The notes under the pieces: model-generated
Told to the model about the DNA's origin: nothing
Seen by the model: the letters and a program-made list of their open reading frames with translations, nothing else
The model's database searches: none
Source: a phage
Sequence record: PZ544694.1
Length of the DNA: 56,700 nucleotides
Direction: 5' to 3' (one strand)
Shown here: piece after piece, positions 5,866 to 23,976 of the stretch
Layout of the letters: the number at the start of each line of letters is the position of its first letter
How positions within the stretch are numbered: the stretch's first letter is position 1
Translations under genes and position numbers: made by a program

Positions 5866-7899
5866 GTGGAATCGAAAAGAACGTTAATTTTTGACTATGA
5901 AACATATAGCGAACTAGACATAAAGAAAGTAGGCGGTCACAAGTATGCACAGCACCCGTCTACTGAAATTCTAATGGTAGCGTGGAAGTTTACTGACTCG
6001 GACGAAATCGGTTTTTGGGACAACACAATGCCCGAAGAAGATTTAGACGAGTTAAAGGGATATTTGCGCGACGATAACATCATAAAACGGGCATTCAACG
6101 CGCAGTTTGAGCGGTTGATCACTAAACACGTCCTAGGTATCGACACACCGTATGACGTCTGGCGTTGTACGATGGTGGCTGCGTACCACCGAGGTTTTAC
6201 CGGCGGGTTAGACATGGTTGGTAAGGCTCTAGGTTTTAAAGGGGATAAAGCAAAAGACGCAGCAGGTAAACGCCTAATTCAGAAATTTTGTAAACCAAGA
6301 AAGCCAACTAAACTCGACAAAAGTACAAGACACGATGCGGAATCACACCCGGAAGAATGGGAAGCATTCGGAGCCTATTGCCGACAAGACGTGATAGCCG
6401 AAGAAAATATCGACCGCCGTCTGAGTGACATCAAGTATGACATGATCGAATTTGAGTGGGAAGTTTACGCGTTAGACCAGAAAATTAATGACCGCGGAAT
6501 AAATATCGATAACGACTTCATCGAAGCAGCAATAAAGATGGCCGAGACACGCAAGCCACAGATTATCGATGAAATGCGAGAACTTACAGGGCTAGCCAAT
6601 CCCGGGTCTCAGAAACAACTATTAGCGTGGCTACAACAAGAGGGATACCCGTTCAACGACCTATTAGCTGACACCGTGAAAAAAGTCATAAACGAGTATC
6701 CGGACAATGGGATCACAGAAAAAGCGTGTCGAGTTCTTAAACTTCGTCGTAAATCTAACAAAACCTCTCTAAAGAAATACAACAAAATGTTAGATATTGA
6801 AAACGACGACGGTAGGGTACGCGGAACAATTCAATGCTACGGGGGTTCTCGAACCGGACGATTCGCCGGGCGGGGCTTACAAACTCACAACTTCGTAAGA
6901 ACACCGAAGATACTTGAAGACGTCGAAGCTACGGAAATCGCTAAAAAGCTAGTTCTCGACCAAGACATGTGGGCTTTAAACGTTTTTGCTGGCGAACCCA
7001 TGGATATGTTGCCGGGGCTACTACGATCCGCACTAATCCCAACGGTAGGTCGTCGCTTCGTTGTAGCGGACTTGTCATCAATTGAATCGGTAGTAATAGG
7101 TTGGCTTACCGGCTGTAAGTGGTTCCTAGATACCTTGCGGGCTAAAAAAGACTTATATCGCGCATTCGCCTCAGCATGGCTAAAAATTCCTTACGAAGAC
7201 ACCCTCCCATTCCGAGGAAAGGCAAAACCGGCCACACTAGGTTGCGGATATCGACTAGGCGGTGGCGAACTTATTGACGGTAAGAAAACCGGACTTTGGG
7301 GTTACGGTGAAAACATGGGAGTCATGCTAACACAAGAGGAGGCTCACGCTTCGGTAGACGCATTCCGAGAGTTGTGCCCTGAGATTGTTGACGGTTGGTA
7401 TAAACTTGAAGATTGCGTAAAAACCACCATTAAGACGCACAAGACAACCCGATGGAGATCGTTAGTATTCGGGTTTAAAAAACCGTTCTTATGGATTAAG
7501 TTGCCATCGGGGCGGAAACTTTATTACTACCGCCCACGCTTAGTAACAAACACCTACAAGAACCGCAGAGGTGAGACGTACACTCGTCAAGAAATAATGT
7601 ACGAGGGTAAAAAAGATCAAGGCGGTTGGGGTGTTCAAACCACGCACGGCGGGAAATTGATTGAGAATATCGTTCAAGCCATAGCAAGAGATGTCCTAGT
7701 AAACGGCATGTTTAATGCGGAAGAAATAGGTTTCGATATCGTATTCCACGTTCACGATGAAATCATAACGGAAGTCGACGAAGATGACCTGTTAGGGCTA
7801 GACGACCTCATTGATTGTATGGCAGCACCGATATCGTGGGCGCCGGGACTACCATTAGGAGCAGCAGGGTGGGAGGGGTATTTTTACCGTAAAGATTAA
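5866..7899 (+). CDS. DNA polymerase, family A, with 3'-5' exonuclease domain
   Basis: 677 aa, GTG start; exo motif LIFDYETYSELD; pol motif A-like VVADLSSIESVV; motif B-like KAKPATLGCGYRLG; motif C FHVHDEIITE. Confidence 0.8.
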   Translation: MESKRTLIFDYETYSELDIKKVGGHKYAQHPSTEILMVAWKFTDSDEIGFWDNTMPEEDLDELKGYLRDDNIIKRAFNAQFERLITKHVLGIDTPYDVWRCTMVAAYHRGFTGGLDMVGKALGFKGDKAKDAAGKRLIQKFCKPRKPTKLDKSTRHDAESHPEEWEAFGAYCRQDVIAEENIDRRLSDIKYDMIEFEWEVYALDQKINDRGINIDNDFIEAAIKMAETRKPQIIDEMRELTGLANPGSQKQLLAWLQQEGYPFNDLLADTVKKVINEYPDNGITEKACRVLKLRRKSNKTSLKKYNKMLDIENDDGRVRGTIQCYGGSRTGRFAGRGLQTHNFVRTPKILEDVEATEIAKKLVLDQDMWALNVFAGEPMDMLPGLLRSALIPTVGRRFVVADLSSIESVVIGWLTGCKWFLDTLRAKKDLYRAFASAWLKIPYEDTLPFRGKAKPATLGCGYRLGGGELIDGKKTGLWGYGENMGVMLTQEEAHASVDAFRELCPEIVDGWYKLEDCVKTTIKTHKTTRWRSLVFGFKKPFLWIKLPSGRKLYYYRPRLVTNTYKNRRGETYTRQEIMYEGKKDQGGWGVQTTHGGKLIENIVQAIARDVLVNGMFNAEEIGFDIVFHVHDEIITEVDEDDLLGLDDLIDCMAAPISWAPGLPLGAAGWEGYFYRKD

Positions 7900-10938: not shown

Positions 10939-13614
10939 ATGTCTAACGTTTTCAAATCTCGTGGCCCTGAACTTTTCGACAATGGATACGAAGTCGTACC
11001 TATTACTCGTATCGACGCAACTGACAGCAAAGGGAAATTATTGTCTGGCGCGGGTAAAGCCCCGGCGTTAAAAGGGTGGCAGAAAATAGAGATCACTTCT
11101 GACATCGTTAATGAATGGGCGACGGGTAGTCGCTCTCGCTGTGGTGTGGGTATTCGTACCCACCGTAACCCTGCTGTCGATATCGACTGTTTAGACGCCG
11201 AAGCGTCAGAACACATGACGGCTTTCGTTGAGTCGGAAGTGGGCTTTGCTCCTATCCGTGTTGGGCGTGAACCTAAAGCGCTACTCCTCTATTATACAGA
11301 ACGTCCTTTCACAAAAGTAAAATCAACCATCTTCGTTGATGAAAACGGGAATGAAAACGCTGTCGAGATATTAGGAAGCGGGCAACAATTCGTTGCTTAC
11401 GGTATCCACCCGGGAACTAAGAAACCGTATAAATGGGTTACTAAAGGCGAGTCGCCTGCGGAAAACCAAGCGGATTTTGACCTTGAAGAAATCACACTAG
11501 AAGACGCGAGAAAAATTATTGCGGAATTCGACCGGTATGCGAAAGAGCGCGGTTGGAAACCTTTAAAAAGTAAAAGCGGTACGGTCATCAAGCCATCTTT
11601 GGGCTACTACTTAGATGCTCCGGAAGAACTATCAGACTGGTCGGACGAGTCGGACTTTGACGATGATGAAGACGATTGGGTCACTACTGATGATATCACC
11701 GATAAATGGGACGGTACTTACGAAGAACTTTACGAAATCTTCGAAAATGATATCGAACCATCTTACGATTACCACACTTGGATTCCTGTTCTGGCTGCAC
11801 TTAAAGACGCCGAACGTGAGCCGGACGAGTTTAAAGAGATCGCGAGAATGTGGTCTGCTCGGGCCGAGGAGTCTTTCGATAACGATGCCTTTGAAGATAA
11901 ATGGGAAAACGGTAATTTCAATCGTGTTGGTAAATACGCTAAGACATTACGAGGAGTAATTGCCGAAGCGGAAAAGATCCAAGGCGTTCGCGAAATTGAG
12001 GACGTAGTTATACCTTTATTCGAAAAAGCTACTGACTTGGCCGAGTGGACTTTAGCTGCCGACCGCCTACGTGAAACGTGGGCTTTCGGTTTAGAAAGAG
12101 AGACGGCCATAAACATTGCTTGCGAAAAGTATAAGAAAGTCACTAACGGGTTAAAACTTACGGACGTTCAAAAGAAACGATATCTTAGTATCGATTACTC
12201 TCTCTTTGACGCTCCCGAATGGTTGGCTCCTTGGGTTTATTGTACTACGGATAACGAGTTTATTAACTTAGACAATAGAACCAGAATGAACCCTAAATCT
12301 TTCGCGAATGCCTATAACCGAGAAACTGTGAAGAAATTCGGGGTAGCTGCGGACGTTTTCGCCACGGTTGAAAGACCCGTTCCTGTTATCCACGATACGA
12401 TGTATTACCCGTTGATGCACGGTGAGATGCCTAAGAACAAATGGAAGCGGGTTCCGGGTATTAATGACAAGCGTGTTTTCGAATACAACGGTTTGACGTT
12501 CTTAAATACCTTTGACCATCGTTCCATGCCTGAGACCGCAACAAAAATTTCGACCGCTGGATATAAGGCGATCGGGGAGGTAAAACGATACTTCGAAATA
12601 CAGTATCCAGATCCAGACGAACGAAGACATGCGATGGACTGGATCGCGTGGGTTATCAATAATCCTGTTAGAAAGATTAACTATATGCTTCTCGTTCTTG
12701 GTGGTCAGGGTTCCGGTAAAACCATCGTTAAGAAGTTTATGGAACACATGCTCGGCTCTGATAACGTCTCTACGATTTCGAATAAGGTTATCCATGGTAA
12801 TTTTACCGGGTGGCAGTCTGGTCACATGCTCAAAGTTATTGAGGAAATATCGGTGAGTGGTCATCGCTACGACGTTATGAACTCATTGAAAGAGCCGATA
12901 TCGAATGAAACGTTACAGATCGAAGCGAAGTACCGTGACCCACGCCAGTGTGTGAATACTTCGTCGTATATGGCATTTACCAATGATGTTGGTGCTTTGC
13001 CTCTTACATCAAGTGACCGTCGCTTCTTGTTAGTTCGTAGTGCGTTCCAGCACAAGCGTGAAGTCACTGAATACCTACGGAAAGACCCTAATTACTTTAA
13101 ACGGTTTGAGAAAGCCTTTACTAAACACGCACCGGAGATCCGCAAATGGTTTAGCGAGTGGGAGTATTCCGAGGGCTTCAAACACGATGGTAACGCTCCT
13201 GAAACGGTGAGTATGGGAAGCATGTCTTTAGCGTCAGAAGACGATTTCACCTCCGTAGTAATGGGGGCCGTAGATGATTGTGAGAAAGAGTTAGAATTTA
13301 CATCGGGGATCACAGACGAAGTAATTTTCATTCCATCGGCAGTAGATTTAGTCCGAGATAGGTCTAAGGTTCCTAACGGGAAAATAATATATCGCATACT
13401 CGCTGAATATGGTTTCTTCCGGCCTGTGGATTCTCGTACACAAATAAGATTTAATGACGTAAGAGGACAAGTTGTTGTCGCGAATAGACATAAATGGCTC
13501 TATCCTGATGGGAGTGTCAACGTAGATAAGATTAAAGAGCATTTAGAGGAGAACGAACGCCGGGTAGAAGAACAAGAAAGCAAGAGAGAGTTAGAAGAAA
13601 CTGACGTTTTCTAA
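10939..13614 (+). CDS. DNA primase-polymerase / SF3 helicase (PrimPol N-terminus, D5/P4-type helicase C-terminus)
   Basis: 891 aa; N-terminal GYEVVPI...GKAPALKGWQ PrimPol-like; Walker A LVLGGQGSGKT, Walker B-like region further C-terminal. Confidence 0.7.
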   Translation: MSNVFKSRGPELFDNGYEVVPITRIDATDSKGKLLSGAGKAPALKGWQKIEITSDIVNEWATGSRSRCGVGIRTHRNPAVDIDCLDAEASEHMTAFVESEVGFAPIRVGREPKALLLYYTERPFTKVKSTIFVDENGNENAVEILGSGQQFVAYGIHPGTKKPYKWVTKGESPAENQADFDLEEITLEDARKIIAEFDRYAKERGWKPLKSKSGTVIKPSLGYYLDAPEELSDWSDESDFDDDEDDWVTTDDITDKWDGTYEELYEIFENDIEPSYDYHTWIPVLAALKDAEREPDEFKEIARMWSARAEESFDNDAFEDKWENGNFNRVGKYAKTLRGVIAEAEKIQGVREIEDVVIPLFEKATDLAEWTLAADRLRETWAFGLERETAINIACEKYKKVTNGLKLTDVQKKRYLSIDYSLFDAPEWLAPWVYCTTDNEFINLDNRTRMNPKSFANAYNRETVKKFGVAADVFATVERPVPVIHDTMYYPLMHGEMPKNKWKRVPGINDKRVFEYNGLTFLNTFDHRSMPETATKISTAGYKAIGEVKRYFEIQYPDPDERRHAMDWIAWVINNPVRKINYMLLVLGGQGSGKTIVKKFMEHMLGSDNVSTISNKVIHGNFTGWQSGHMLKVIEEISVSGHRYDVMNSLKEPISNETLQIEAKYRDPRQCVNTSSYMAFTNDVGALPLTSSDRRFLLVRSAFQHKREVTEYLRKDPNYFKRFEKAFTKHAPEIRKWFSEWEYSEGFKHDGNAPETVSMGSMSLASEDDFTSVVMGAVDDCEKELEFTSGITDEVIFIPSAVDLVRDRSKVPNGKIIYRILAEYGFFRPVDSRTQIRFNDVRGQVVVANRHKWLYPDGSVNVDKIKEHLEENERRVEEQESKRELEETDVF

Positions 13615-14030
13615 ATGCACGTTTGGTCAAAAAATGAGCGTACAAAATTTATACAGAAAAACGTTCAATATTTAACCGATTTTCGGGTGATCGGATTTTT
13701 TGAGTGAGTGAATTTCCAATTTTTCATTTTTCCATTTTTTGGTCGAAAAACACCGAAAATGCTGTACAAATTTTATACAGGGTTTTTTGACACAAAGTGT
13801 GTCGGTCATGTGTTCCGACGTGTGCGTGCCAGTTAAATGTTGTACAAAAATCACCCAACACACATGATCGAATTACCTTTATATAGCTTATATATATATT
13901 TTTCTATTTTTCCTTTCCTATCTATTTTTTCTTTCTTCTGGAATTTCTATTTTATTATCTATTACTGTGTTTGCTGTGTCAGAAAGAAAGTAATATAGTT
14001 GCTGTGTCAGAAAGAAAGTAATATAGTAAA
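13615..14030. promoter_or_regulatory. AT-rich repeat-containing region, candidate origin or regulatory region
   Basis: Three copies of AATG-nn-GTACAAA-type motif at 13633-13656, 13757-13780, 13834-13853; T-tracts; 28-bp tandem repeat at 13972-14027; only very short ORFs. Confidence 0.35.
13972..14027. repeat. perfect 28-bp tandem direct repeat x2 (TGCTGTGTCAGAAAGAAAGTAATATAGT)
   Basis: Read directly: copy 1 at 13972-13999, copy 2 at 14000-14027. Confidence 0.9.
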
Positions 14031-14333
14031 AACAATAACTTACCTTGGAACACCTATTGGAACATCAGCCGGCACAGCAATTTCCTGTGACACACCACCA
14101 GCCATGGTAATACCTAAAACGGCGCATAACTATTTGATATTATTACGGAATTACCTAAAATACCGGTCATTACGGTAAATGATGTCCCCTATTGCTAAAG
14201 CCTGTGCGTCGCTCTCCGTGCTTTCTAGAGAAGAATCACTTTTAAATCGAAAAAGGTACTTGGACGAGTTGTCCGGTTGGGCGGGGGTGCGCAGAGCCGT
14301 CTTCCAGAAATTTGTCCGGGATCTGCCATAGAT

Positions 14334-14624
14334 GTTTGGGTGTTCGGGTGGGCGGTGTTGTGGGTTAGATGTGCTTCAAATTGTAAGCGTGTGCGATTGT
14401 GCGAGGCGATCGCGGTGTTAGTTGTCGGTCGTATCCGTTGAGCGGGGGTATAGCGCCTCGGGTGAACACGCCGATCGGGAACGTCGTTTTTACGTTTTGT
14501 GCGGGTGTTCGGGTGTGCGGTTGTACCGCATGACGTTTTTACAAATATAAATGCGGTCGCGCCAGCGCCTACCCACCCAACACCACCACCCCAAGCCCTC
14601 ACTCTCCCCCATTCCCCCCCACCC
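14334..14624. repeat. G-rich imperfect direct repeats followed by a C-rich tract
   Basis: GGGTGTTCGGGTG-type motif at 14334-14366 and 14494-14528; C-rich tract about 14566-14624 (CCCACCCAACACCACCACCCC...). Confidence 0.6.
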
Positions 14625-14766
14625 TATGGAAAATTGCCGTAAAGCCATGTGTTGCGTCCTCAGCGTGTTTTGCCCGCTAGGTAAGGCCGATGTATTACCT
14701 ACGATGAGTTATGCCCGTGTGGTTCGATTGAGGGCGGAAGACGGCGCTTTGTTTGTTCCGACTTAA

Positions 14767-15006
14767 ATGAGCATTCTCAAGATGCTACTCTCCGGTGTGT
14801 ACAACGTGGGCGCCGTGTGTTTCTTCGGCCTAATTTCGATTTATATTCTCTCGTTCTTTTTCCGCGCCCTACAAAACCACGGTTTCGACGGTCTACACCG
14901 CACTACGTTAGTTCTCGAATCAATCGGCGCTATCATGATGGTCGTCTTCATGGTTTGCGTTGCGATCTTGGTGTTCGCCGGAGGCGTCGCCCTAACAATC
15001 CGGTAG
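14767..15006 (+). CDS. small hydrophobic membrane protein, hypothetical
   Basis: 79 aa, two or three predicted TM helices (VCFFGLISIYILSFFF; IMMVVFMVCVAILVFAGGVAL). Confidence 0.4.
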   Translation: MSILKMLLSGVYNVGAVCFFGLISIYILSFFFRALQNHGFDGLHRTTLVLESIGAIMMVVFMVCVAILVFAGGVALTIR

Positions 15007-15585
15007 ATGAGTTGTAACTGTTTCGATCGTATTCAAAAATCGATGGCTGATCGGGTGGCCGGTAAGTTGCCGAACGGCGCAATAATACACTCGGCGGAGT
15101 GGAAAACAGAAGTGTTAGCTATTGAAAATAAAAAGTTGAAAACCCGATATTTTCTAGACTTCACCATAGAGTATCAAGAGCGTAGACCGGACGGGACGCT
15201 CTACTCGACGGTAACAAAATCTGATTTTCCTGTGTTTATGAATTATTGCCCGTTCTGTGGCGTAAAGTTCGAGGAGGACGAACAAACTCAGGATCAGGAA
15301 GACCGTTTTAAATTCCCTGCGCTAGTCTACGTCAAAAATGGAAAAGACCCCATCGCACACACGGGGGCAACGTTACAACGAAGTGGGACAGAACACCCTC
15401 GCGGAATGTTTGCGGAGTACGTGAACGTGCGAACCAATGAGCGGATTTACTTTTCTGAGTCGTTGATGTCCTCCCGCCTAGACGGTGGCGATTACGTCGA
15501 GATCCCCGACGACTGGGAACAACTCAGCGACTATTGCCAGAAAGACATAATCGCAGAACGAAAAGCACGAGGCGGTCGAAAATGA
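15007..15585 (+). CDS. hypothetical protein with Cys pairs (CNC...CPFC)
   Basis: 192 aa frame-1 ORF; possible zinc-ribbon cysteines. Confidence 0.45.
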   Translation: MSCNCFDRIQKSMADRVAGKLPNGAIIHSAEWKTEVLAIENKKLKTRYFLDFTIEYQERRPDGTLYSTVTKSDFPVFMNYCPFCGVKFEEDEQTQDQEDRFKFPALVYVKNGKDPIAHTGATLQRSGTEHPRGMFAEYVNVRTNERIYFSESLMSSRLDGGDYVEIPDDWEQLSDYCQKDIIAERKARGGRK

Positions 15586-15798
15586 ATGGAAATAATCAAC
15601 GCTTGGCCGTTTTGTCTCGGTGTCGTTTTGATGGTGTTAGGGTTCGGCGTGGCTGTCCTGTGTATCGTGGGGACGAACAAAGCGACCCGAAGCGAAACCT
15701 TTGAGAAATTACGCGCTGTAAGTTTAGCCGGAATCACCTTTGTGATGGTGGGCGCGTGTTTCGTCATCTACTCGTCTGTTAGGAGTCAATTATTATGA
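15586..15798 (+). CDS. small membrane protein, hypothetical
   Basis: 70 aa, two hydrophobic helices. Confidence 0.4.
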   Translation: MEIINAWPFCLGVVLMVLGFGVAVLCIVGTNKATRSETFEKLRAVSLAGITFVMVGACFVIYSSVRSQLL

Positions 15799-16488
15799 AT
15801 GATCGTATTAACTGGTTGTACTCAAAACACGTTTGACATGAAGATCCACACTAAAGCGGGCGCCGTTTTCCATACAAATATTAGCTTTGAAGATTTCCGC
15901 ACTAAAGCCAGTGGGGCTTCGTACCACTTGCATAAAATGGGTCATGAACTGGGCGACGTTGAGTCTCTTGGCATGGTTCCGGAAGATAGGTTTAACCGTG
16001 TGCGCTTTTGGGCGCATGGCATGGAAAAGCTGATCGTAGCGCATAATACCGGCTTTCACTCGTTCGACTTTCTCCACGTTGATTTATTGCCGATAAATAC
16101 ACTACTAGGTGAGGTCAAAACGCCGTTAATCATTCCGTCGTTGATTGGTGGCGTGAATCTCGGCACATGGAAAAACGATTGTTATTTAATTACCTCACCC
16201 TTGGCGAAAGATAACGGTAAATCGGTTCTAGTATGTCAAGGGGAGAAAGTTCTAGAGGACGAGGAACTAACGCAATCAGAGCTAGACGCGGGGGAGAACT
16301 TGAACACACTCACCGTATTAACTGACCTGCAAACACTCCGCCAGCCTTACCTAGTCAGCGATGGCGATTTATTTTGCGACCAGTTCGATTCTAGCGTGGG
16401 GATTGTGTTAAACGTTGTCGCGGACACCTACGGGGATATTGTCATTAACCCACACGGAATAGCAAATACTCAATTTATGGATCGCTAG
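15799..16488 (+). CDS. hypothetical protein
   Basis: 229 aa frame-1 ORF; AGGAG upstream; ATGA stop/start duplicated at junction. Confidence 0.5.
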   Translation: MIVLTGCTQNTFDMKIHTKAGAVFHTNISFEDFRTKASGASYHLHKMGHELGDVESLGMVPEDRFNRVRFWAHGMEKLIVAHNTGFHSFDFLHVDLLPINTLLGEVKTPLIIPSLIGGVNLGTWKNDCYLITSPLAKDNGKSVLVCQGEKVLEDEELTQSELDAGENLNTLTVLTDLQTLRQPYLVSDGDLFCDQFDSSVGIVLNVVADTYGDIVINPHGIANTQFMDR

Positions 16489-17289
16489 ATGAAAAAGATT
16501 ACTATCGGTGCTTCAGAACGTGCGGAATTACGTCAAATTTGTAACGTTATCAAAGCTAATCCTACGCACTATGAAACGGTTACTTACACGAATAAAGACG
16601 CGACCGCATCTATCAAAGTTAAATATTCCGCCGGCGAAAAACTAACGTATAAAGCCTTTATCACCGTTATCGTGGGCGAGAAAGTGGCAACCGAAACCGT
16701 AGAAGCCGGAAGTTTTAATATCGTCGAGAACAAGATCCGTGCGTGTGGTTCTGTTGACTACTTGACCGAGTTATCAAATAAAACCGTATCCCTAGATAAA
16801 CCGCTTCACGTATCATTGCGTAAATCAATGCAACCAAGCGCACAGCAACGTAGAGGAATCAAGGAGATGACGCGTAAAGCGGAGAAAGCCGACCCATTGG
16901 ATTTAGTGCTTATGGATAGCCTCTTGATCGTTCGCAAGTCGTTTGGTGTCGTATATCGTGGCCAAGTTCTAAACTTCAAAAGTGCTATAAACAATCAAGG
17001 GGCGATCAAGATTATCGTGTCTATAAATACGATGTTTAATAACGACTTACAATATGTGTGGTCAATGATATACACCCTCGACCGTTTGGCCTACGATATA
17101 CGCAATGGGAACCTCGCCATTCTATCGCATAGTGCGCCGACGAAAGTTTTACGGGTGTACGGTTGGCGCGGTGACTATGAGACTATCGCAGTAAACCAGA
17201 AAGCCCGACTGTCATCAGTGATCGAGAATTTCATGATTGAGGGTGGTTCTCGTCGCATTGAGTTTCGCCCGTTACCTCAAAGAAACTAA
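16489..17289 (+). CDS. hypothetical protein
   Basis: 266 aa frame-1 ORF, no recognised domain. Confidence 0.5.
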   Translation: MKKITIGASERAELRQICNVIKANPTHYETVTYTNKDATASIKVKYSAGEKLTYKAFITVIVGEKVATETVEAGSFNIVENKIRACGSVDYLTELSNKTVSLDKPLHVSLRKSMQPSAQQRRGIKEMTRKAEKADPLDLVLMDSLLIVRKSFGVVYRGQVLNFKSAINNQGAIKIIVSINTMFNNDLQYVWSMIYTLDRLAYDIRNGNLAILSHSAPTKVLRVYGWRGDYETIAVNQKARLSSVIENFMIEGGSRRIEFRPLPQRN

Positions 17290-17511
17290 ATGAAGCCGGT
17301 AAATAATCCAACCTTGGATAAGACGATCGAGATTTACCAAGAGCGAGGCGAAAATATTTATTACGTTGTTGCGGGCGGTGTATGGATCGGGACGATTGCC
17401 AAGACACCACACCACCTCAAGCCGTGGACTTTCTGCGGGCAAGGTGTGAGCCTTGGCGGGGATTCCTTGGAAATGGTTAAAAAATCCGTGGTTACGATGC
17501 TCACACGGTAA
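17290..17511 (+). CDS. hypothetical protein
   Basis: 73 aa frame-1 ORF. Confidence 0.35.
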   Translation: MKPVNNPTLDKTIEIYQERGENIYYVVAGGVWIGTIAKTPHHLKPWTFCGQGVSLGGDSLEMVKKSVVTMLTR

Positions 17512-18153
17512 ATGAGACGCGTTGATCCTAAAGACTGTTTAGACATAATCCTAAACTACCATTATGCGAAACGTCGACCTAGCATATCTTACGCTTTCGG
17601 GTTCTTCGAAGACGAGGAGCTTGTCGGGGTTCTAACTATCGGTAAGCCGGCCAGCAACCCGCTATGTGTTGGAATATTGGGCGAGGAGTACAAAAGCCAC
17701 GTTTTTGAGTTAAACCGACTTTGTTTTATTCGTCCAATCCGTAACGCTCCGTCGCAGTTGATCGCCTTCGCTATGGCTGAGTTGAAAAGTGAAAACCTTG
17801 TCATCGTGTCGTATGCGGATCGCGGTATGAACCACAACGGATATATTTATCAAGCGTCTAATTTCATCTACACGGGGGCGACGAAAGCGCGCACCGATAA
17901 ATACACGGAGCAAGGTAAACACTCTCGGCATTATCAAGGAAAGGAAAGCAAGACGTATCGACAAGTCAGAACATCTAAGCATCGTTACGTTTATTTTACG
18001 GGGAGCCGTTCGGTCGTGAAGAAGTATAAAAAGTTGCTTCGATATCCGGTATTGCCTTATCCCAAGGAAGAAAATAAAAATTATGTGCTCGGATCCGAGT
18101 ACAAGCAAGAACTCGTTAAGATTAAAGGGGGAGAAAATGAAGCCGGTAAATAA
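17512..18153 (+). CDS. putative Mom-like DNA modification protein
   Basis: 213 aa; HYAKRRP, LVGVLTIGKPASNP, VIVSYADRGMNHNGYIYQASNFIYTG, KHRYVYF, PVLPYPKE recalled as characteristic of Mom-family proteins; recalled from memory, not searched. Confidence 0.4.
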   Translation: MRRVDPKDCLDIILNYHYAKRRPSISYAFGFFEDEELVGVLTIGKPASNPLCVGILGEEYKSHVFELNRLCFIRPIRNAPSQLIAFAMAELKSENLVIVSYADRGMNHNGYIYQASNFIYTGATKARTDKYTEQGKHSRHYQGKESKTYRQVRTSKHRYVYFTGSRSVVKKYKKLLRYPVLPYPKEENKNYVLGSEYKQELVKIKGGENEAGK

Positions 18154-18894
18154 ATGACTTTCATTTCTAACGTTGTAACCGATAACAGCCCTTTTGATAT
18201 GCCCGAAAGTGTTCGTAATTATATTTTGACAGTTAACCCTCGCGCCAAGGTGGGCGATGTTAAAACATTATCGGGGGCGATAGCATTAATTGCGGATTTC
18301 GATAAATTCATTCCACTAGCACGTTACCTATTTGAGAGCGTCGAGGTGAGCGTGTTCGATCATGGTGCGAGCTGTCATATGGCCAATGATGCGGACTTAT
18401 CCGCACGAACTATCGCCGTAATGAAAGCGCTGGGGTTCTCTTTAGACCTTGATAAATCTCACGGAGCGACAACATTTGCGAAAACAATCGACGGGAAAGA
18501 ATTAAAAGCCATATTTTTTAGCCGTGGCGAAGAAGCCGAAGGTTGGGACATAACTTTCACGATCGGCGGGTGTGTGACGCTTAAACGTAACGCGGTTAGC
18601 GATTTAGACGCCTTGATCTTGGCGTCACTCCCTGAAAGTTTCGACACAATGCGCCCACTGTTAGACGGCCTGTCAAGCCTTGGTTTCGAAGTGAACAACG
18701 AAGCATCAGTTGACGGGCTTACAGTGTTCTACTGCGAAGACGACGGGCGAGAAATCCACGTGAAAGATGGCGACGTGTTCGGGCATTTTTTCGCGGTCTA
18801 CTTCGTTGATGGTAAAGACGTTGCGATACGCGCGAATCGTCCGGCCGAAATTATTGTTCGTGACGCCTCAGAATCGTGGACGTGGGAGGGTTAA
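18154..18894 (+). CDS. hypothetical protein
   Basis: 246 aa frame-1 ORF. Confidence 0.5.
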   Translation: MTFISNVVTDNSPFDMPESVRNYILTVNPRAKVGDVKTLSGAIALIADFDKFIPLARYLFESVEVSVFDHGASCHMANDADLSARTIAVMKALGFSLDLDKSHGATTFAKTIDGKELKAIFFSRGEEAEGWDITFTIGGCVTLKRNAVSDLDALILASLPESFDTMRPLLDGLSSLGFEVNNEASVDGLTVFYCEDDGREIHVKDGDVFGHFFAVYFVDGKDVAIRANRPAEIIVRDASESWTWEG

Positions 18895-18970
18895 TTGTTT
18901 TCATGTTTTCAAATCAAGGCTATATTAACGGATATTTTTCAACTTGTAAACAATAAATTTCTCAGCGGAA

Positions 18971-18998
18971 AAGAAAAAAGCCCGCATATACGGGCTTA
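18971..18998 (-). terminator. intrinsic terminator-like hairpin (T-tract on complementary strand)
   Basis: GAAAAAAGCCCG-CATATA-CGGGCTT; 6-bp GC-rich stem, 6-nt loop; reverse complement gives hairpin followed by TTTTTTC. Confidence 0.45.
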
Positions 18999-19179
18999 AA
19001 TGGTGATCAGGGAAAAGAAAAACTGGTATTATTGTTCATGCGGTAAGCCGTTTAGATCTGAGGCTCGCAGTAGTAACGGGCTAGTTTTGTTTCGATTAAA
19101 GTGCGTATCCTGTGGGATATATTCACCGTGGCGCGGTTCAATTGGGCTATGTGTAGCGACGCTTGACAGCACCACGTAA

Positions 19180-19545
19180 ATGGGTAACTCAGTAAATTGT
19201 TTCAAATTTTATGAGGTTTGTAATGAGTTTCTAAATCTACCGGTAGTGGCTATCGGGAGGCCTAGCAACGATTTATCATTACCGGAATTTAATTACTCTT
19301 ATGGCGTGGTGTTCCATGTTAACAACAAGTTGCTTAGAGTCCTAACCGTCCGATATTCTTATGGACACCGGAGGGCATACGTTAGGATCGACGACGTAAG
19401 AACGGATTACCCTAATGTCACTTATCCGGTTTACGAGCCGGTTCTTTTCTCGGGGGAGATCGCCGGCGAATGGATACGAGGCGCAAAAAATTTATACCGG
19501 AGTTATAGGGACACGCTAACGAACGTAAGGGGGTCTGTATGGTGA
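19180..19545 (+). CDS. hypothetical protein
   Basis: 121 aa frame-1 ORF. Confidence 0.45.
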   Translation: MGNSVNCFKFYEVCNEFLNLPVVAIGRPSNDLSLPEFNYSYGVVFHVNNKLLRVLTVRYSYGHRRAYVRIDDVRTDYPNVTYPVYEPVLFSGEIAGEWIRGAKNLYRSYRDTLTNVRGSVW

Positions 19546-20115
19546 ATGGCAGAATTAGCATACACTAAAGCGTCTATCTTCCAATCTATCGTTGATGATG
19601 TTAGTACGGGTCTACCTAAAGGAACTTCATTAGATACCCGCGGAGATTTCGAAAATCAATTACGCGACCTTTTCGAAGAAAATAATCTTATGAATGCGCC
19701 GGAATGTATCAGCGTCGACTACTTCGGGGAAGCATGGGAGATCGTCCAGTCTAGCGAGTTTGATTCTGTTGAGCTAGAAACGCCTTTAGATTTCAGCGGG
19801 TGCAAAAGTTCATTAAAATGTTTGATGATGGAAGCTAACGCATTAATAAGCGCGTCTTGGCGTGAACAAGTGGAAGCCTACATCGAAGAACTGGCCGAAG
19901 CACTGGAAGAAGTTGTCGAGGGTTGCGAGGAGTTCGGAACAATCGACGAACTGGTAATCACTGGCGGGTGCCGTTTCGGTCACATTCCACACCTAAGAGA
20001 GTTCGATGCTGGCGACTTTTCTGTGTGCATGTGGGCGCCGAACGAAGCCGGAGAGTCTGAAATTTATTATAATTTCCGAGGTCTGGAACTGCGCGGGGTT
20101 GTATATCATGGGTAA
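19546..20115 (+). CDS. hypothetical acidic protein
   Basis: 189 aa frame-1 ORF, Glu/Asp-rich. Confidence 0.45.
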   Translation: MAELAYTKASIFQSIVDDVSTGLPKGTSLDTRGDFENQLRDLFEENNLMNAPECISVDYFGEAWEIVQSSEFDSVELETPLDFSGCKSSLKCLMMEANALISASWREQVEAYIEELAEALEEVVEGCEEFGTIDELVITGGCRFGHIPHLREFDAGDFSVCMWAPNEAGESEIYYNFRGLELRGVVYHG

Positions 20116-20493
20116 GTGGACGGTGTGACATACTTTTCATCAGTTCCTAAAGATACCAATTCACGCCGGGCGAGATCCCGGCTTTCTTCGTTCTTGAGTC
20201 CGCACGAAAAAGAGTTACAACTATCTACGCACGACATACAGACTATTTTAAACCTAGCTAATGCGTTTTACTTCCGAGCTGATCCGGAGAGTAAACCGGC
20301 TTACTCAGACAACAAAACTATTGTAAGCCTTCGCATATCCGGAATAGTCGAAGATGATCGGGGCTGGCTCATTATCCGCCGGCATTTCCTTAATTCTGGT
20401 CAGTGCTGGAAGACGTTGCACTTAGAGGTTATTTTTACCCACATAGAAAATCTGACCTTATGTGAGTGTAAAATTCCCTATTTCCCCGATTGA
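20116..20493 (+). CDS. hypothetical protein
   Basis: 125 aa, GTG start directly after preceding stop. Confidence 0.4.
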   Translation: MDGVTYFSSVPKDTNSRRARSRLSSFLSPHEKELQLSTHDIQTILNLANAFYFRADPESKPAYSDNKTIVSLRISGIVEDDRGWLIIRRHFLNSGQCWKTLHLEVIFTHIENLTLCECKIPYFPD

Positions 20494-20685
20494 ATGATGA
20501 AGAATAAAATCACATTAAACAGCGGTATGATTTTAATCGCTGACGACGAAAAAGTTACGGTAAACGCAGACGGTTCGCTATTCTGTCCGGCGTGGGATAT
20601 GCGCTTTATGTTAACTCGTAACATTTCATATAATCGAACGGTTACACATCGAGAGGTGAAAAGTTTTGAGCGATTATACAGTTGA
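20494..20685 (+). CDS. hypothetical protein
   Basis: 63 aa frame-1 ORF. Confidence 0.3.
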   Translation: MMKNKITLNSGMILIADDEKVTVNADGSLFCPAWDMRFMLTRNISYNRTVTHREVKSFERLYS

Positions 20686-20928
20686 ATGGCTAAGAAATTA
20701 AATAATTTAGAGGCTCGCGGGGCGTTTGGTTTTGTCGTCGCGTCTCTTTGTGCGGTAGGGTTCGCGGGGGCGGTGGGAACTTTGGCCGTATATGGTGATC
20801 TAACCGTCGCGCGTTTCTGTCTTTATGGGGTAGCGTTTGGGGTGGTCGGCGGGATTGCGTGGCCTGATCAGGAGAGCGGGGAGGCGTTTATATCTGCGAT
20901 ACGTGGGGGCGGTAATGATGAAGAATAA
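20686..20928 (+). CDS. small membrane protein, hypothetical
   Basis: 80 aa, Gly/Ala/Val-rich hydrophobic segments. Confidence 0.4.
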   Translation: MAKKLNNLEARGAFGFVVASLCAVGFAGAVGTLAVYGDLTVARFCLYGVAFGVVGGIAWPDQESGEAFISAIRGGGNDEE

Positions 20929-21255
20929 ATGAGCAAACAAATTCCTTTCGATCTTTTCCGTTCTGCGCATCGTCTGACTGTCACAGGGATCGAGGCGAAC
21001 TATGAGCAATATGTCGTTCTCTCCCATAAAGCCGACGCGGATTATCTGGAAAAGTTCATCGATAACTTATTGAATGATTTCCCTTTCCCTGTTGCGATAT
21101 CAGAAGAAAGAGTGAGTAGCCCGTCTTCTGTAATTATCCGGTCGGGCTTGATGGTGTCCGAGATTAAAAAGGATATAAAAAGCGGTAAGGTGGCTAATAT
21201 GTATTTATCGGAGCCGGTTCGAACTCGCAACGATAATATTATTATTCACCCGTAA
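20929..21255 (+). CDS. hypothetical protein
   Basis: 108 aa frame-1 ORF. Confidence 0.4.
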   Translation: MSKQIPFDLFRSAHRLTVTGIEANYEQYVVLSHKADADYLEKFIDNLLNDFPFPVAISEERVSSPSSVIIRSGLMVSEIKKDIKSGKVANMYLSEPVRTRNDNIIIHP

Positions 21256-21474
21256 TTGTACTTATCTACAAAAATTTCGGGCTTACTTCAAAAACCTCGC
21301 GGGCCGATGATTTTCTGTGACGATTTAAAAACTTTTCCGGCCGGCTTACTTCAAAAACCTCGCGGGCTGAAAAAATTCCCGTGAGTGAGAAATAAAAACC
21401 GGCCAATGGATTTATCTACAAAAATTAGAACCTTACTTCAAAAACCTCGCCGGTTGACGGAAATCCTCGGGTAA
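21256..21474. repeat. cluster of ~22-bp direct repeats (CTTACTTCAAAAACCTCGCGGGC), candidate regulatory elements
   Basis: Copies at 21282-21304, 21345-21367, 21432-21453 (last with 2 mismatches); TTATCTACAAAAATT at 21262-21276 and 21412-21426. Confidence 0.6.
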
Positions 21475-21906
21475 ATGATCGAGTCAGAAGATATTATTTT
21501 CGTAAACGGCGACAAACCTAAAATCGATAACTCGCCAGCGCTAGAAAGACGCAACACGGTTAGTGTAGAACTAGAACGAGAGTTAACCGCAGCGTCTTCG
21601 ATTCCGGACAAACTTACAGTAGTACCAACAAAAGGGAGACCAACCAGCATGGTAGGTATGATCGTATCGTTAGATGTCGGAGACGTGTTCACTAAATCCG
21701 AGTTTATTCTTGAAGTTTCAGGTCTCGACGCCATGAGCGAGAGCGTAGACCTGACTACACGAAAAGAAAAACTCAGACAAAGCGTAAAAGCGTCTATGAC
21801 ACACGCTAAAAAGAAAACTAAGGGCGAATATACTTTAGAAACGCACCACTTTATTACGCCGTTGGGTCGCCTTTACATTCAAGTTTTAGTGACCCGTATT
21901 TCCTGA
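21475..21906 (+). CDS. hypothetical protein
   Basis: 143 aa frame-1 ORF. Confidence 0.45.
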   Translation: MIESEDIIFVNGDKPKIDNSPALERRNTVSVELERELTAASSIPDKLTVVPTKGRPTSMVGMIVSLDVGDVFTKSEFILEVSGLDAMSESVDLTTRKEKLRQSVKASMTHAKKKTKGEYTLETHHFITPLGRLYIQVLVTRIS

Positions 21907-22218
21907 ATGGAACGCAACGACAATTTAGAGCACACCACCCCCGCAGACCCGGATACGCAAATCGTCAAGTTGTTAGAGGGGAACCCGGATCTTTTAAAGC
22001 ACTTTTATAAACTTTCCGCATTAGCGGGAAACGTGGGGGAGATGGAACGCTCTTTCGAAGAACGAGTTGACGCCGTGTTTAAAGTAGGTATCCGCCTAGT
22101 CATGGTCGCGAGCAACCGGAAAAACCTTATCGTAACCGATGACGATGTGGCAAAGGCGGAGAACTCAACACTGGAAGTTAGCGAAAATAACGGCAATGTT
22201 AAATATATGATCAAGTAG
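21907..22218 (+). CDS. hypothetical protein
   Basis: 103 aa frame-1 ORF. Confidence 0.4.
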   Translation: MERNDNLEHTTPADPDTQIVKLLEGNPDLLKHFYKLSALAGNVGEMERSFEERVDAVFKVGIRLVMVASNRKNLIVTDDDVAKAENSTLEVSENNGNVKYMIK

Positions 22219-22539
22219 ATGAAAAATTCAAACGTAGCACTCGCCATTGATTCCGTTTTGGTAAAAAAGAAAATTGATATTATCCCGGTTTTTAAATCGT
22301 TAGAGGAAGAATATCAAATGCGGATACAAGCGTCGTGGTCAGGCATCACCGCGCACACGCCAGAACGACGCATCTACACCCACGGCCACCCGACTACTAA
22401 GATGGCAACAACACCGGAACAACGTACAACGTATCGCCTCCGTCTATTGAAATTCCTACGGTGGCTCTACGCGAACAACTACACAACGGGGCCACTGTTA
22501 GAAATCAAATCGTGGCTAGAGGAGCAAGAGGAATGGTAA
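22219..22539 (+). CDS. hypothetical protein
   Basis: 106 aa frame-1 ORF. Confidence 0.4.
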   Translation: MKNSNVALAIDSVLVKKKIDIIPVFKSLEEEYQMRIQASWSGITAHTPERRIYTHGHPTTKMATTPEQRTTYRLRLLKFLRWLYANNYTTGPLLEIKSWLEEQEEW

Positions 22540-22887
22540 ATGGTAAAGGTCTTATACAACAGCGAACAAGCGCAAGTAAACCAGTTGCGAGACCAGATTA
22601 AATCGCACACTGAGTCGTTTGAAACAGCGATGGCCGAAGTCGACCAGATCATTAAAGAAAATATCGAGACATACCTAAACGATATATCCGGGTTAATGAT
22701 GTCGATAGTTAGAGTGTATGACAACGCGGAGATTGAGGACAAAGCGGTGGCCTTAGATCTTGTTCACTCTAAAGCGGTAACTCGTTTAGCTGCTATCGAA
22801 GATAAGAGCATAGAACTACGCGCCCATATTGAAAACTTAGTATCCACCATTAAAACCGGAGTGATTAAAAACAATGAAACCATTTGA
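22540..22887 (+). CDS. hypothetical protein
   Basis: 115 aa; AGAGGA Shine-Dalgarno-like motif upstream; last 14 nt duplicated as start of next ORF. Confidence 0.45.
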   Translation: MVKVLYNSEQAQVNQLRDQIKSHTESFETAMAEVDQIIKENIETYLNDISGLMMSIVRVYDNAEIEDKAVALDLVHSKAVTRLAAIEDKSIELRAHIENLVSTIKTGVIKNNETI

Positions 22888-23976
22888 ATGAAACCATTTG
22901 ATAAATTTATTGCTTTTGCAATATCTGAACCAGCAGACCCTAACAATACGACTTCGTTTTCCGCATTAGCTAACGGGACAGAAGACCAACTAAAACAACT
23001 AGGCCGAGAACTAGAAACAAGCCTGAGAAACTTACCGATCGGAGACCCAAGCGCTATGCAGTGGACGCGCCACGGTTTTGCTAAACCCGACGAGAACGCC
23101 GAACCGATCACCGTTGTAGATGAAGTCCTAGGGGACATGGAAGACACACCATACGTTATGATAGACGAAGCGGGTAAATATCTTGTGTTCACTTTCGAAG
23201 AACGTGCTCGAATGCTAAGCCCGACAACGATCAAGGACGAATTAGAGGTTAAAGTAAAAGATTGGATAGAACGAGTTGGTGACACCCCGACAAAACGTGA
23301 ACGTAATGATATGCGCGATGAAATCATCAATGACTTGTTGCCAAAGGCCACAATAAAGCGCACCAAGACATACGCCATGATCATCAAGGGTGTTCTTATT
23401 GTCTTCGCCGGTAGCAATAACATCGGTGAAAAAGTAGCATCGGCCGTAAGAAAGGTAGTAGGGTCTCTCCCAGTAGTACCATGGTTTGAGCATTCGGCCC
23501 TCATTACGGAGTTTCTAAAGAAAATCGCTACGGTAGACTTTGACCCGGAAGATGCAGTAGGCCAAGCGCTAGATAAATTTGAGATTGTCCGTAGTGCTAA
23601 AGTCTCCGCTGAAACCGGTGCGTACACTTTCAAAGATGTTTTTGACATCACGAATGACGTTTCCTTCAAAGAAGCGCTAGGACAAACTAACGGATACTCA
23701 TACCCTCTCGGGATCACCGAAGCGAATTTAGAATTACGACATGACGCCACAGACAGCCCTATCGGTTTTGTTCTTACGGCCAAAGGCGTTTTAAAGAGCG
23801 TAAATTGGAATGACGAGCCGGAAAATATTTTCGACGACTCAGTGTTTGACACGAACGAGGAACGGGAGCGTGCTCGATTTATTTTCTCTACGTGGGACGC
23901 TTACACCTTAGTTACGGCCGTGCTAGGAGCGCTACACAACGCAAACGCAAACCGATTTGTAGAAGACGATATGTAA
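22888..23976 (+). CDS. rdgC: recombination-associated protein RdgC-like
   Basis: 362 aa; RNDMRDEIINDLLPKATIKRTKTYAMIIKGVLIVFAGS...VRKVVGSLPVVPW colinear with E. coli RdgC (KDEVLHSLLPRAF...LRKSLGSLPVVP). Confidence 0.7.
   Translation: MKPFDKFIAFAISEPADPNNTTSFSALANGTEDQLKQLGRELETSLRNLPIGDPSAMQWTRHGFAKPDENAEPITVVDEVLGDMEDTPYVMIDEAGKYLVFTFEERARMLSPTTIKDELEVKVKDWIERVGDTPTKRERNDMRDEIINDLLPKATIKRTKTYAMIIKGVLIVFAGSNNIGEKVASAVRKVVGSLPVVPWFEHSALITEFLKKIATVDFDPEDAVGQALDKFEIVRSAKVSAETGAYTFKDVFDITNDVSFKEALGQTNGYSYPLGITEANLELRHDATDSPIGFVLTAKGVLKSVNWNDEPENIFDDSVFDTNEERERARFIFSTWDAYTLVTAVLGALHNANANRFVEDDM

Follow-up and report, generated by a model that had tools for sequence, protein, structure and literature searches.

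What are three copies of a short direct repeat, two of them preceded by a second motif, doing directly before a block of genes in a Chi-like phage? Analysis of the sequence of the window (the whole 56,700-nt stretch of DNA studied here) had led to the prediction of repeated promoter or operator sites ahead of the gene block that starts at position 21475. Chi-like phages (Casjensviridae), which target the flagellum, are widely isolated and serve in phage therapy and biocontrol, but hardly any work exists on their gene regulation or replication. In the searchable literature we found no description of the repeat sequence or of the function of DUF7609, the protein family encoded next to it, and the repeats go unmentioned in the Chi genome paper. 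The element described below is one conserved cis-element at the boundary between early and middle genes, tied to a DUF7609 gene that is essential in phage JS26. The site and the protein form a testable pair, which could reveal either the early-to-middle switch of the family or its replication origin.

Repeats and boxes in the window and in the natural genome

A mismatch search placed the 23-mer CTTACTTCAAAAACCTCGCGGGC at 21282-21304 and 21345-21367 without mismatches and at 21432-21454 with two, which confirms the three copies originally reported and sets the third core at 21432-21454. Further copies at ≤3 mismatches were absent from the whole window, and none arose in 100 dinucleotide-preserving shuffles. 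A 15-mer box, TTATCTACAAAAATT, matches exactly at 21262-21276 and 21412-21426, each time 5 nt 5' of a repeat copy. These exact matches bear out the predicted pairing of a box with repeats 1 and 3 in units about 150 bp apart (the composite units of box and repeat start 150 nt from each other). Looser matches to the box (3 mismatches) elsewhere in the window are at chance level. The repeat itself is real, but the 22 bp first assigned to it are too short: the conserved unit is about 26-28 nt long, with the consensus ggCTTACTTSAAAAAccTnnCnGGyTG (41 copies from 10 lineages).

The layout around these motifs differs from that in the phage. All long open reading frames (ORFs) in the window are on the plus strand, and adjacent ORFs abut with zero spacing. 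Compared with Escherichia phage E21 (MN604053; Lavrentievavirus, Casjensviridae), the window resolves into 64 matching blocks, ordered as in the genome coordinates and nearly all 100% identical, of which 55 are individually reverse-complemented. The E21 sequence missing from the window amounts to 2,006 nt, all of it intergenic, and where gene calls overlap their ends are duplicated (E21 reads ...cccGTGAgaaat, whereas the window, at 21381-21388, reads ...cccgTGA followed directly by GTGAgaaat). From the strand and abutment of the ORFs, the pattern of E21 blocks and the duplicated overlaps it follows that the window is a concatenation of gene calls: the predicted genes of E21 are placed end to end, each in sense orientation, and the intergenic DNA is removed (examples are the junctions 1401/1402, 3468/3469, 21255/21256, 21384/21385 and 21474/21475). 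Spacing, strand or neighbour relations read over any such junction are artificial. The repeat region (E21 22366-22580) is in the window because the gene caller made two tiny ORFs there. In concatenated gene-call "genomes" generally, regulatory DNA is kept only where it was miscalled as an ORF, and spacings and neighbours are distorted. The features of the locus, in window coordinates with E21 equivalents, are as follows.

21255/21256, no strand: artificial junction; 143 bp lost (E21 22223-22365), comprising the leftward promoter PL, box 1 and a spacer
21256-21384, plus strand: spurious gene call, starting at TTG and 42 aa long (QGF21917.1 in the E21 annotation)
21262-21276, plus strand: box TTATCTACAAAAATT (E21 22372-22386), 5 nt upstream of repeat 1
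21280-21308 (core 21282-21304), plus strand: repeat copy 1 (E21 22392-22414)
21343-21371 (core 21345-21367), plus strand: repeat copy 2 (E21 22455-22477), without a preceding box
21385-21474, plus strand: another spurious call, starting at GTG and 29 aa long; its first four letters (21385-21388, GTGA) are a duplicated 4-nt overlap
21412-21426, plus strand: box TTATCTACAAAAATT (E21 22518-22532), 5 nt upstream of repeat 3
21430-21458 (core 21432-21454, two mismatches), plus strand: repeat copy 3 (E21 22538-22560)
21474/21475, no strand: artificial junction; 110 bp lost (E21 22581-22690), comprising an AT-rich spacer, the rightward promoter PR (TTGACA-17-TAGTAT) and the next gene's ribosome-binding site
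21475-21906, plus strand: gene for a 143-aa DUF7609 (PF24582) protein (E21 22691-23122), opening the rightward operon

Several apparent properties of the locus change once the natural sequence is restored. The left neighbour gene (20929-21255) is on the opposite strand in natural E21. Copies 2 and 3 are 87 nt apart in the window and 83 nt apart in the phage; the larger value is an artefact, because GTGA (21385-21388) is duplicated at the joint of the two overlapping gene calls. A third box, TTATCTATAAAAATT (E21 22290-22304), is absent from the window and present in the natural genome. A search of the whole genome for more copies, which the original prediction had called for, returned the three-copy array at a single locus of the 58.5-kb E21 genome, and outside the array the motif was not found there even as 13-mers at ≤1 mismatch.

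The natural control region spans 469 bp (E21 22222-22690) between back-to-back promoters. A sigma70 scan of this region recovered PL and PR as the only promoter-like sites, both outside the repeats. PL (E21 22254-22282) points leftward and reads TTGACA-17-TAATAT with a TG extension, and PR (22621-22649) points rightward; the two are near-identical, near-consensus and inverted with respect to each other, and have the extended core TTGACACC in common. In Kokobel1 and XAP3, the PL/PR pair forms a 23-26-nt inverted repeat. Reading from PL to PR in E21, box 1 (22290) stands directly upstream of the PL -35 hexamer and is followed by box 2 (22372) paired with repeat 1 (22392), by repeat 2 (22455) and by box 3 (22518) paired with repeat 3 (22538). 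Successive repeats start 63 and 83 bp apart in the natural genome. About 50 bp of AT-rich DNA lead from repeat 3 to PR, and the -35 hexamer of PR begins 83 bp downstream of where this repeat starts. Within the natural region, a terminator scan found no terminator and an Rfam search at E-value ≤1 gave no match. The 12-mer cos sequence was determined for phage Chi (PMC4342425), and the same sequence, GGTGCGCAGAGC, occurs exactly at E21 14499-14510. The PL operon (E21 15161-22221) therefore runs from the array outward to the physical end of the genome, the array lying about 7.9 kb (13.5%) from the cos end. The PR operon opens with the DUF7609 gene.

Conservation of the array and its link to DUF7609

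A one-directional array of 2-6 repeat copies, each oriented toward PR, occupies the same position, upstream of PR and the DUF7609 gene, in 12 of 12 Casjensviridae lineages examined. The array is present in Kokobelvirus, Zhonglingvirus, Jacunavirus (two species), Enchivirus, Redjacvirus, Chivirus, Yonseivirus and Dunedinvirus, as well as in the Pseudomonas phage SS2019XI group and in uncultured IMG/VR contigs. Phage Chi itself carries five copies, and JS26 (Dunedinvirus) has six repeats of a diverged unit, GGTACTTGAGAAAGCCAGCSAGACC. Across the 41 copies, the 5' half of the repeat is nearly invariant and the 3' half is variable, often with a small dyad, CCT-N3-AGG. Related boxes (TTYTCTAYAAAAA) stand 5' of some repeats in Kokobel1, XAP3, Stilesk and Chi, and the flanks of the array cannot be aligned between genera. 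At the same position in the GC-rich Burkholderia phage AH2 there are about six tandem 29-bp units, GGTGCCCTTCGGCGACCTGTCGGGCTGTCGG, which agree with the enteric unit at 20 of 31 positions when aligned in register. Such drift of the site with phage lineage is as expected if the binding protein is phage-encoded.

Constraint is also visible at short range. Among nine Lavrentievavirus genomes that are 96-100% identical at the control region, variable sites number 7 of 153 in the repeats, boxes and promoter hexamers and 46 of 316 in the spacers (Fisher p = 0.001). In passing, Proteus/Escherichia Lavrentievavirus genomes share about 95-98% identity with GenBank entries that carry the names Staphylococcus phage SVV09-A, Enterococcus phage AS-M1_NWU and Pseudomonas phage E21; the hosts given in these names are doubtful and may reflect contamination or mislabelling.

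The distance from the start of the copy nearest PR to the PR -35 hexamer is 29 bp in KPN U2874, 30 in Stilesk, 39 in AH2, 44 in JC01, 68 in JS26, 75 in Chi, 80 in Kokobel1, 83 in E21, about 101 in XAP3 and 109 in Enc34, that is, 29-109 bp in 10 of the 11 lineages measured, with about 40 bp, judged by eye, in SLP-22. In Stilesk and KPN U2874 the last copy comes within only 7-8 bp of the PR -35 hexamer. Spacing between copies is irregular in most genera (31-124 bp), and the sites are spread over 170-300 bp. Some patterns are nevertheless common to pairs of genera (51/71 in Chi and Stilesk, 63/83 in E21 and Kokobel1), which suggests that the array works as one structured unit. Helical phasing gave no general rule: the spacings 63/83 and 51/73/52 are near whole turns, and 61/57/47/57 and 29 are not. 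In several genera the array also contains a single third motif, TTGAAAAATTTTGAAC, directly 3' of one of the repeats; this motif might be a bend or a site for a host factor. Its positions in the extracted loci are given below.

Chi, 1460-1480: third motif TTGAAAAATTTTGAAC
Enc34, ~1897-1915: third motif
Stilesk, ~1956-1972: third motif
XAP3, 1470-1486: third motif

In all lineages checked, namely E21, Kokobel1, XAP3, SLP-22, JC01, Enc34, Stilesk, JS26 (gp15), Chi (gp62), KPN U2874 and AH2 (gp14), the array and PR are followed first by a gene for a DUF7609 protein, and the same linkage holds on IMG/VR contigs that reach far enough downstream. Matches in the Pseudomonas group are weaker (E ~1e-4). 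None of the 31 database relatives of DUF7609 comes from a contig longer than about 64 kb, and many of these contigs are close to 60 kb; matches in BFVD belong to other Casjensviridae, and the family appears to be confined to Chi-like phages. A fold search with its domain of about 85 aa was uninformative and showed no winged-helix, Rep-like fold. Just N-terminal of the domain is a conserved, AT-hook-like arm (P-S-R-x-R-P-x-S), a weak hint from sequence that this arm might contact the minor groove at the A5 tract of the repeat. Some of the proteins (Enc34, XAP3 and Stilesk) end in an acidic DDDEV tail. Several GenBank records call DUF7609 proteins "RecT family protein" or "replication protein", names for which we found no support.

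Phage JS26 has two DUF7609 paralogues, gp15, which adjoins the array, and gp28, which has no array upstream. In a transposon-sequencing preprint, both gp15 and gp28 are essential, and gp14, the gene predicted over the array, is not among the essential genes (bioRxiv 10.64898/2025.12.19.695335). The same study assigns gp01-13, on the PL side, to the early period and the genes from gp15 onwards, on the PR side, to the middle period (bioRxiv 10.64898/2025.12.19.695335). Judged by linkage only, the leading candidate for a protein binding at the repeats is DUF7609.

Coding sequence, promoters and CRISPR

The repeats are neither promoters nor coding sequence. If the two small ORFs were real genes of 42 and 29 aa, the repeats would be a duplicated peptide motif, LLQKPRG. 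Such ORFs are indeed annotated in E21, pPM_01, SD-11 and other GenBank records (Salmonella phage SD-11_S17 carries the same annotated pair), and they are open in 9 of 9 Lavrentievavirus genomes. Against this, their start codons are TTG and GTG, and no Shine-Dalgarno sequence is visible in front of them. The first ORF ends differently in 2 of 9 close relatives through a 1-nt indel, giving 42 or 44 aa; the second is 29, 37 or 51 aa long among relatives, its stop codon not being conserved; and the ends differ even among phages with 96-98% identity. Because most repeat spacings of other genera are not divisible by 3, no reading frame is conserved. The small ORFs have no protein-family match and no PHROG match, and several GenBank records show no gene at the array at all. 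The original prediction had set coding in the source genome against a regulatory role; the region is coding there on paper only, since two CDSs are annotated in it but the ORFs are not conserved. We regard the coding explanation as extremely improbable.

Expression data from JS26 bear on both the coding and the promoter readings. Predicted gp14 (6676-6918) overlies 4-5 of the 6 array repeats of this phage, and it received no strand-specific RNA-seq reads at 5, 20 or 40 min (PMC8754663), although multi-mapping reads in such a repetitive stretch may have been discarded. The absence of reads argues against translation of the region and against promoters within it.

A promoter in each composite unit, serving host RNA polymerase or a phage-modified form of it, would fit the size of the unit (about 43 bp), its promoter-like spacing of 47-83 bp and the TTGAAA inside the repeat in most genera, which resembles a -35 hexamer. 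The sigma70 scan, however, picked out only PL and PR, the 41 copies have no conserved -10 hexamer 16-18 bp downstream, and no phage RNA polymerase was seen in the E21 annotation. We consider this reading very unlikely. Promoters of the sigma32, sigmaE, sigma28, sigma54 and T4 MotA types were likewise rejected, no conserved -10 partner being apparent by eye in the 41 aligned copies. What survives of the predicted "promoter or operator sites" before 21475 is thus the cis-acting, operator-like part: promoter prediction, which had been proposed as a check, places no promoter in the repeats and finds the two real ones outside them, in DNA that is missing from the window.

CRISPR arrays have regular repeats of 23-50 bp, usually palindromic, with unique spacers of similar length and with cas genes or a leader. 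The locus has three copies, natural spacers of 40 and 60 nt and a second motif inside the spacers, and it was rightly held not to be a CRISPR array. CCT-N3-AGG is its sole dyad; no cas genes were seen in the E21 annotation, and Rfam gave nothing.

Transcription control, replication origin or DNA entry

The repeats are non-coding, untranscribed and family-wide, their position, orientation and gene linkage are fixed, and the array has evolved along with a gene specific to the phage lineage. They very probably constitute a cis-acting array of putative protein-binding sites. That a protein binds them, which protein this is, and that the output is control of transcription are points we infer from these regularities. 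By analogy, the element would work like known direct-repeat binding arrays, either iterons or multi-site operators.

We tentatively favour control of transcription from PR and PL as the role of the array. PL would drive the early operon toward the nearby cos end and PR would drive the DUF7609 operon. A phage-encoded, sequence-specific DNA-binding protein, for which DUF7609 is the candidate, would fill the 3-6 sites and so build a protein-DNA complex just upstream of PR. This complex would set the timing or level of PR, by autoregulation and/or as an early-to-middle switch, and it may also dampen PL. Control of the promoter is preferred because the nearest copy stands at an activator or repressor distance from PR in all lineages, because the PR operon of JS26 is delayed although its promoter looks constitutive, and because insertions in the array region of JS26 seem to be tolerated. 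As in operator arrays, the sites lie just upstream of the candidate for the regulated promoter, PR. Two points run counter to this reading. The 3' half of the repeat does not obviously follow the relatedness of the DUF7609 proteins (JC01 and SLP-22 belong to one genus and have different 3' halves), and 3-6 irregular sites over 170-300 bp exceed what a simple activator or repressor needs. A search for a conserved regulator in the early operon showed that JS26 gp01-13 have no BLAST-level relatives in E21.

Phage operators with many sites offer a partial parallel. The O1-O3/IAS sites of Mu (Pe/Pc) and the p4/p6 sites of phi29 (A2c/A2b, A3) are also many short asymmetric sites between back-to-back early promoters, and there, too, the sites coincide with a switch in transcription timing. 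Unlike them, the Chi-like sites are longer (about 26 bp), have one orientation and are clustered toward one promoter, and no lysogeny repressor is involved in E21.

The main rival is a replication origin in which the repeats would be iterons bound by an initiator, either DUF7609 or a phage primase-helicase of the Prim-Pol/D5 type; it is the main rival because the order of repeats, promoter and essential gene is also the classic layout of an iteron origin. Iteron origins have several same-orientation direct repeats of about 17-22 bp, and in iteron plasmids and in P1 oriR the iterons overlap with the region that controls the neighbouring essential gene. The arrays of P1 oriR (incC-repA), pSC101, F and R6K, and the phage origins lambda ori and P4 ori/crr, have the same kind of 19-29-bp direct repeats in one orientation, and as in iteron arrays, the Chi-like repeats are non-coding, lie immediately 5' of the promoter of a neighbouring essential gene and change in sequence with lineage while the architecture is kept. 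Here, 2-6 direct repeats of 22-29 bp in one orientation fill an untranscribed gap between divergent promoters, those of AH2 are strictly tandem with a 29-bp period, and the adjacent DUF7609 gene is essential in JS26. The DDDEV tail of some DUF7609 proteins resembles the tails of SSB, and SSB acidic tails recruit replisome components. E21 also encodes its own PolA and a Prim-Pol + PriCT_2 + DUF5906 helicase, and its box TTATCTACA agrees at 8 of 9 positions with the DnaA box consensus TTATNCACA. This likeness is lost in other genera (TTTCTCTATAAAA, TTTTCTATACAAA), including Chi, XAP3 and Stilesk, and neither the DnaA-box nor the IHF reading of the 15-mer box is conserved across genera. Unlike iteron arrays, the Chi-like array has no conserved AT-rich unwinding element beside it (the stretch from PL to the array is very GC-rich in SLP-22, JS26 and AH2), has no conserved DnaA or IHF site and is irregularly spaced in most genera, and the adjacent ~85-aa DUF7609 domain showed no likeness to winged-helix Rep proteins. 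That JS26 gp14, over the array, is not among the genes found essential by Tn-seq also speaks against an origin, and another region of the genome looks more origin-like:

~13614-14770 (E21 13751-15160), no strand: non-coding DNA flanked by the primase gene and the end of the early operon; AT-rich (GC 0.39-0.42)

This 1.4-kb region, next to the primase gene and cos, contains many short direct and inverted repeats (e.g., GTACAAAWTTTATACAG and TTTTTCATTTTTCC) and holds the cos 12-mer; it could plausibly be the replication origin instead, or serve in packaging. The cumulative GC skew of natural E21 tracks the direction of transcription and was uninformative about the origin. An iteron origin at the array seems somewhat less likely than transcription control, and our preference for a promoter switch over it is a tentative one.

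A further alternative takes the array for an analogue of the T5 injection stop signal (iss), a polar barrier or organising site that would delay entry or exposure of the PR side. The one-directional array would then mark the inner edge of a first-injected early segment until early proteins have been made. In T5, 7.9% of the genome enters in the first step of transfer, which stops at a conserved region of untranslated repeats (bioRxiv 10.1101/866236). The array lies 9.7% of the genome length from the early-operon end in Chi, 10.5-11% in JS26 and about 13.5% in E21, and all of its copies have one polarity. The hot spot for transposon insertion in JS26 covers exactly gp01-gp13, which its authors read as the DNA injected first (bioRxiv 10.64898/2025.12.19.695335), and this Tn5 boundary fits an early segment that enters first. 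An iss-like site, if true, would explain why expression of the PR operon falls in the middle period despite a promoter near the sigma70 consensus. The likeness to the T5 iss as described by Davison (bioRxiv 10.1101/866236) extends to conserved untranslated repeats at the inner edge of a terminal early segment, about 8-13% from the end, and to poorly conserved early genes nearby. The T5 region, however, is about 1.2 kb long with nested inverted repeats, palindromes and paired DnaA boxes, whereas the Chi-like element is a simple one-directional array with no paired DnaA boxes, and the two-step DNA transfer of T5 is not known for Chi-like phages. The argument for an entry site is purely positional, it leaves the tight linkage to DUF7609 and PR unexplained, and a diffusible regulator explains the delay of PR equally well. 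Both the polar barrier and the marking of a first-injected segment are improbable in our view, and transcription control remains the tentative choice.

A minor observation concerns the early operon to the left of the array. The 63-aa ORF at 20494-20685 of the window aligns with PHROG 18953 ("tail protein") only over the C-terminal 60 residues of that family, and the homologue in pPM_01 carries the annotation "tail protein"; this label is unlikely to be right, because the ORF sits in the early operon.
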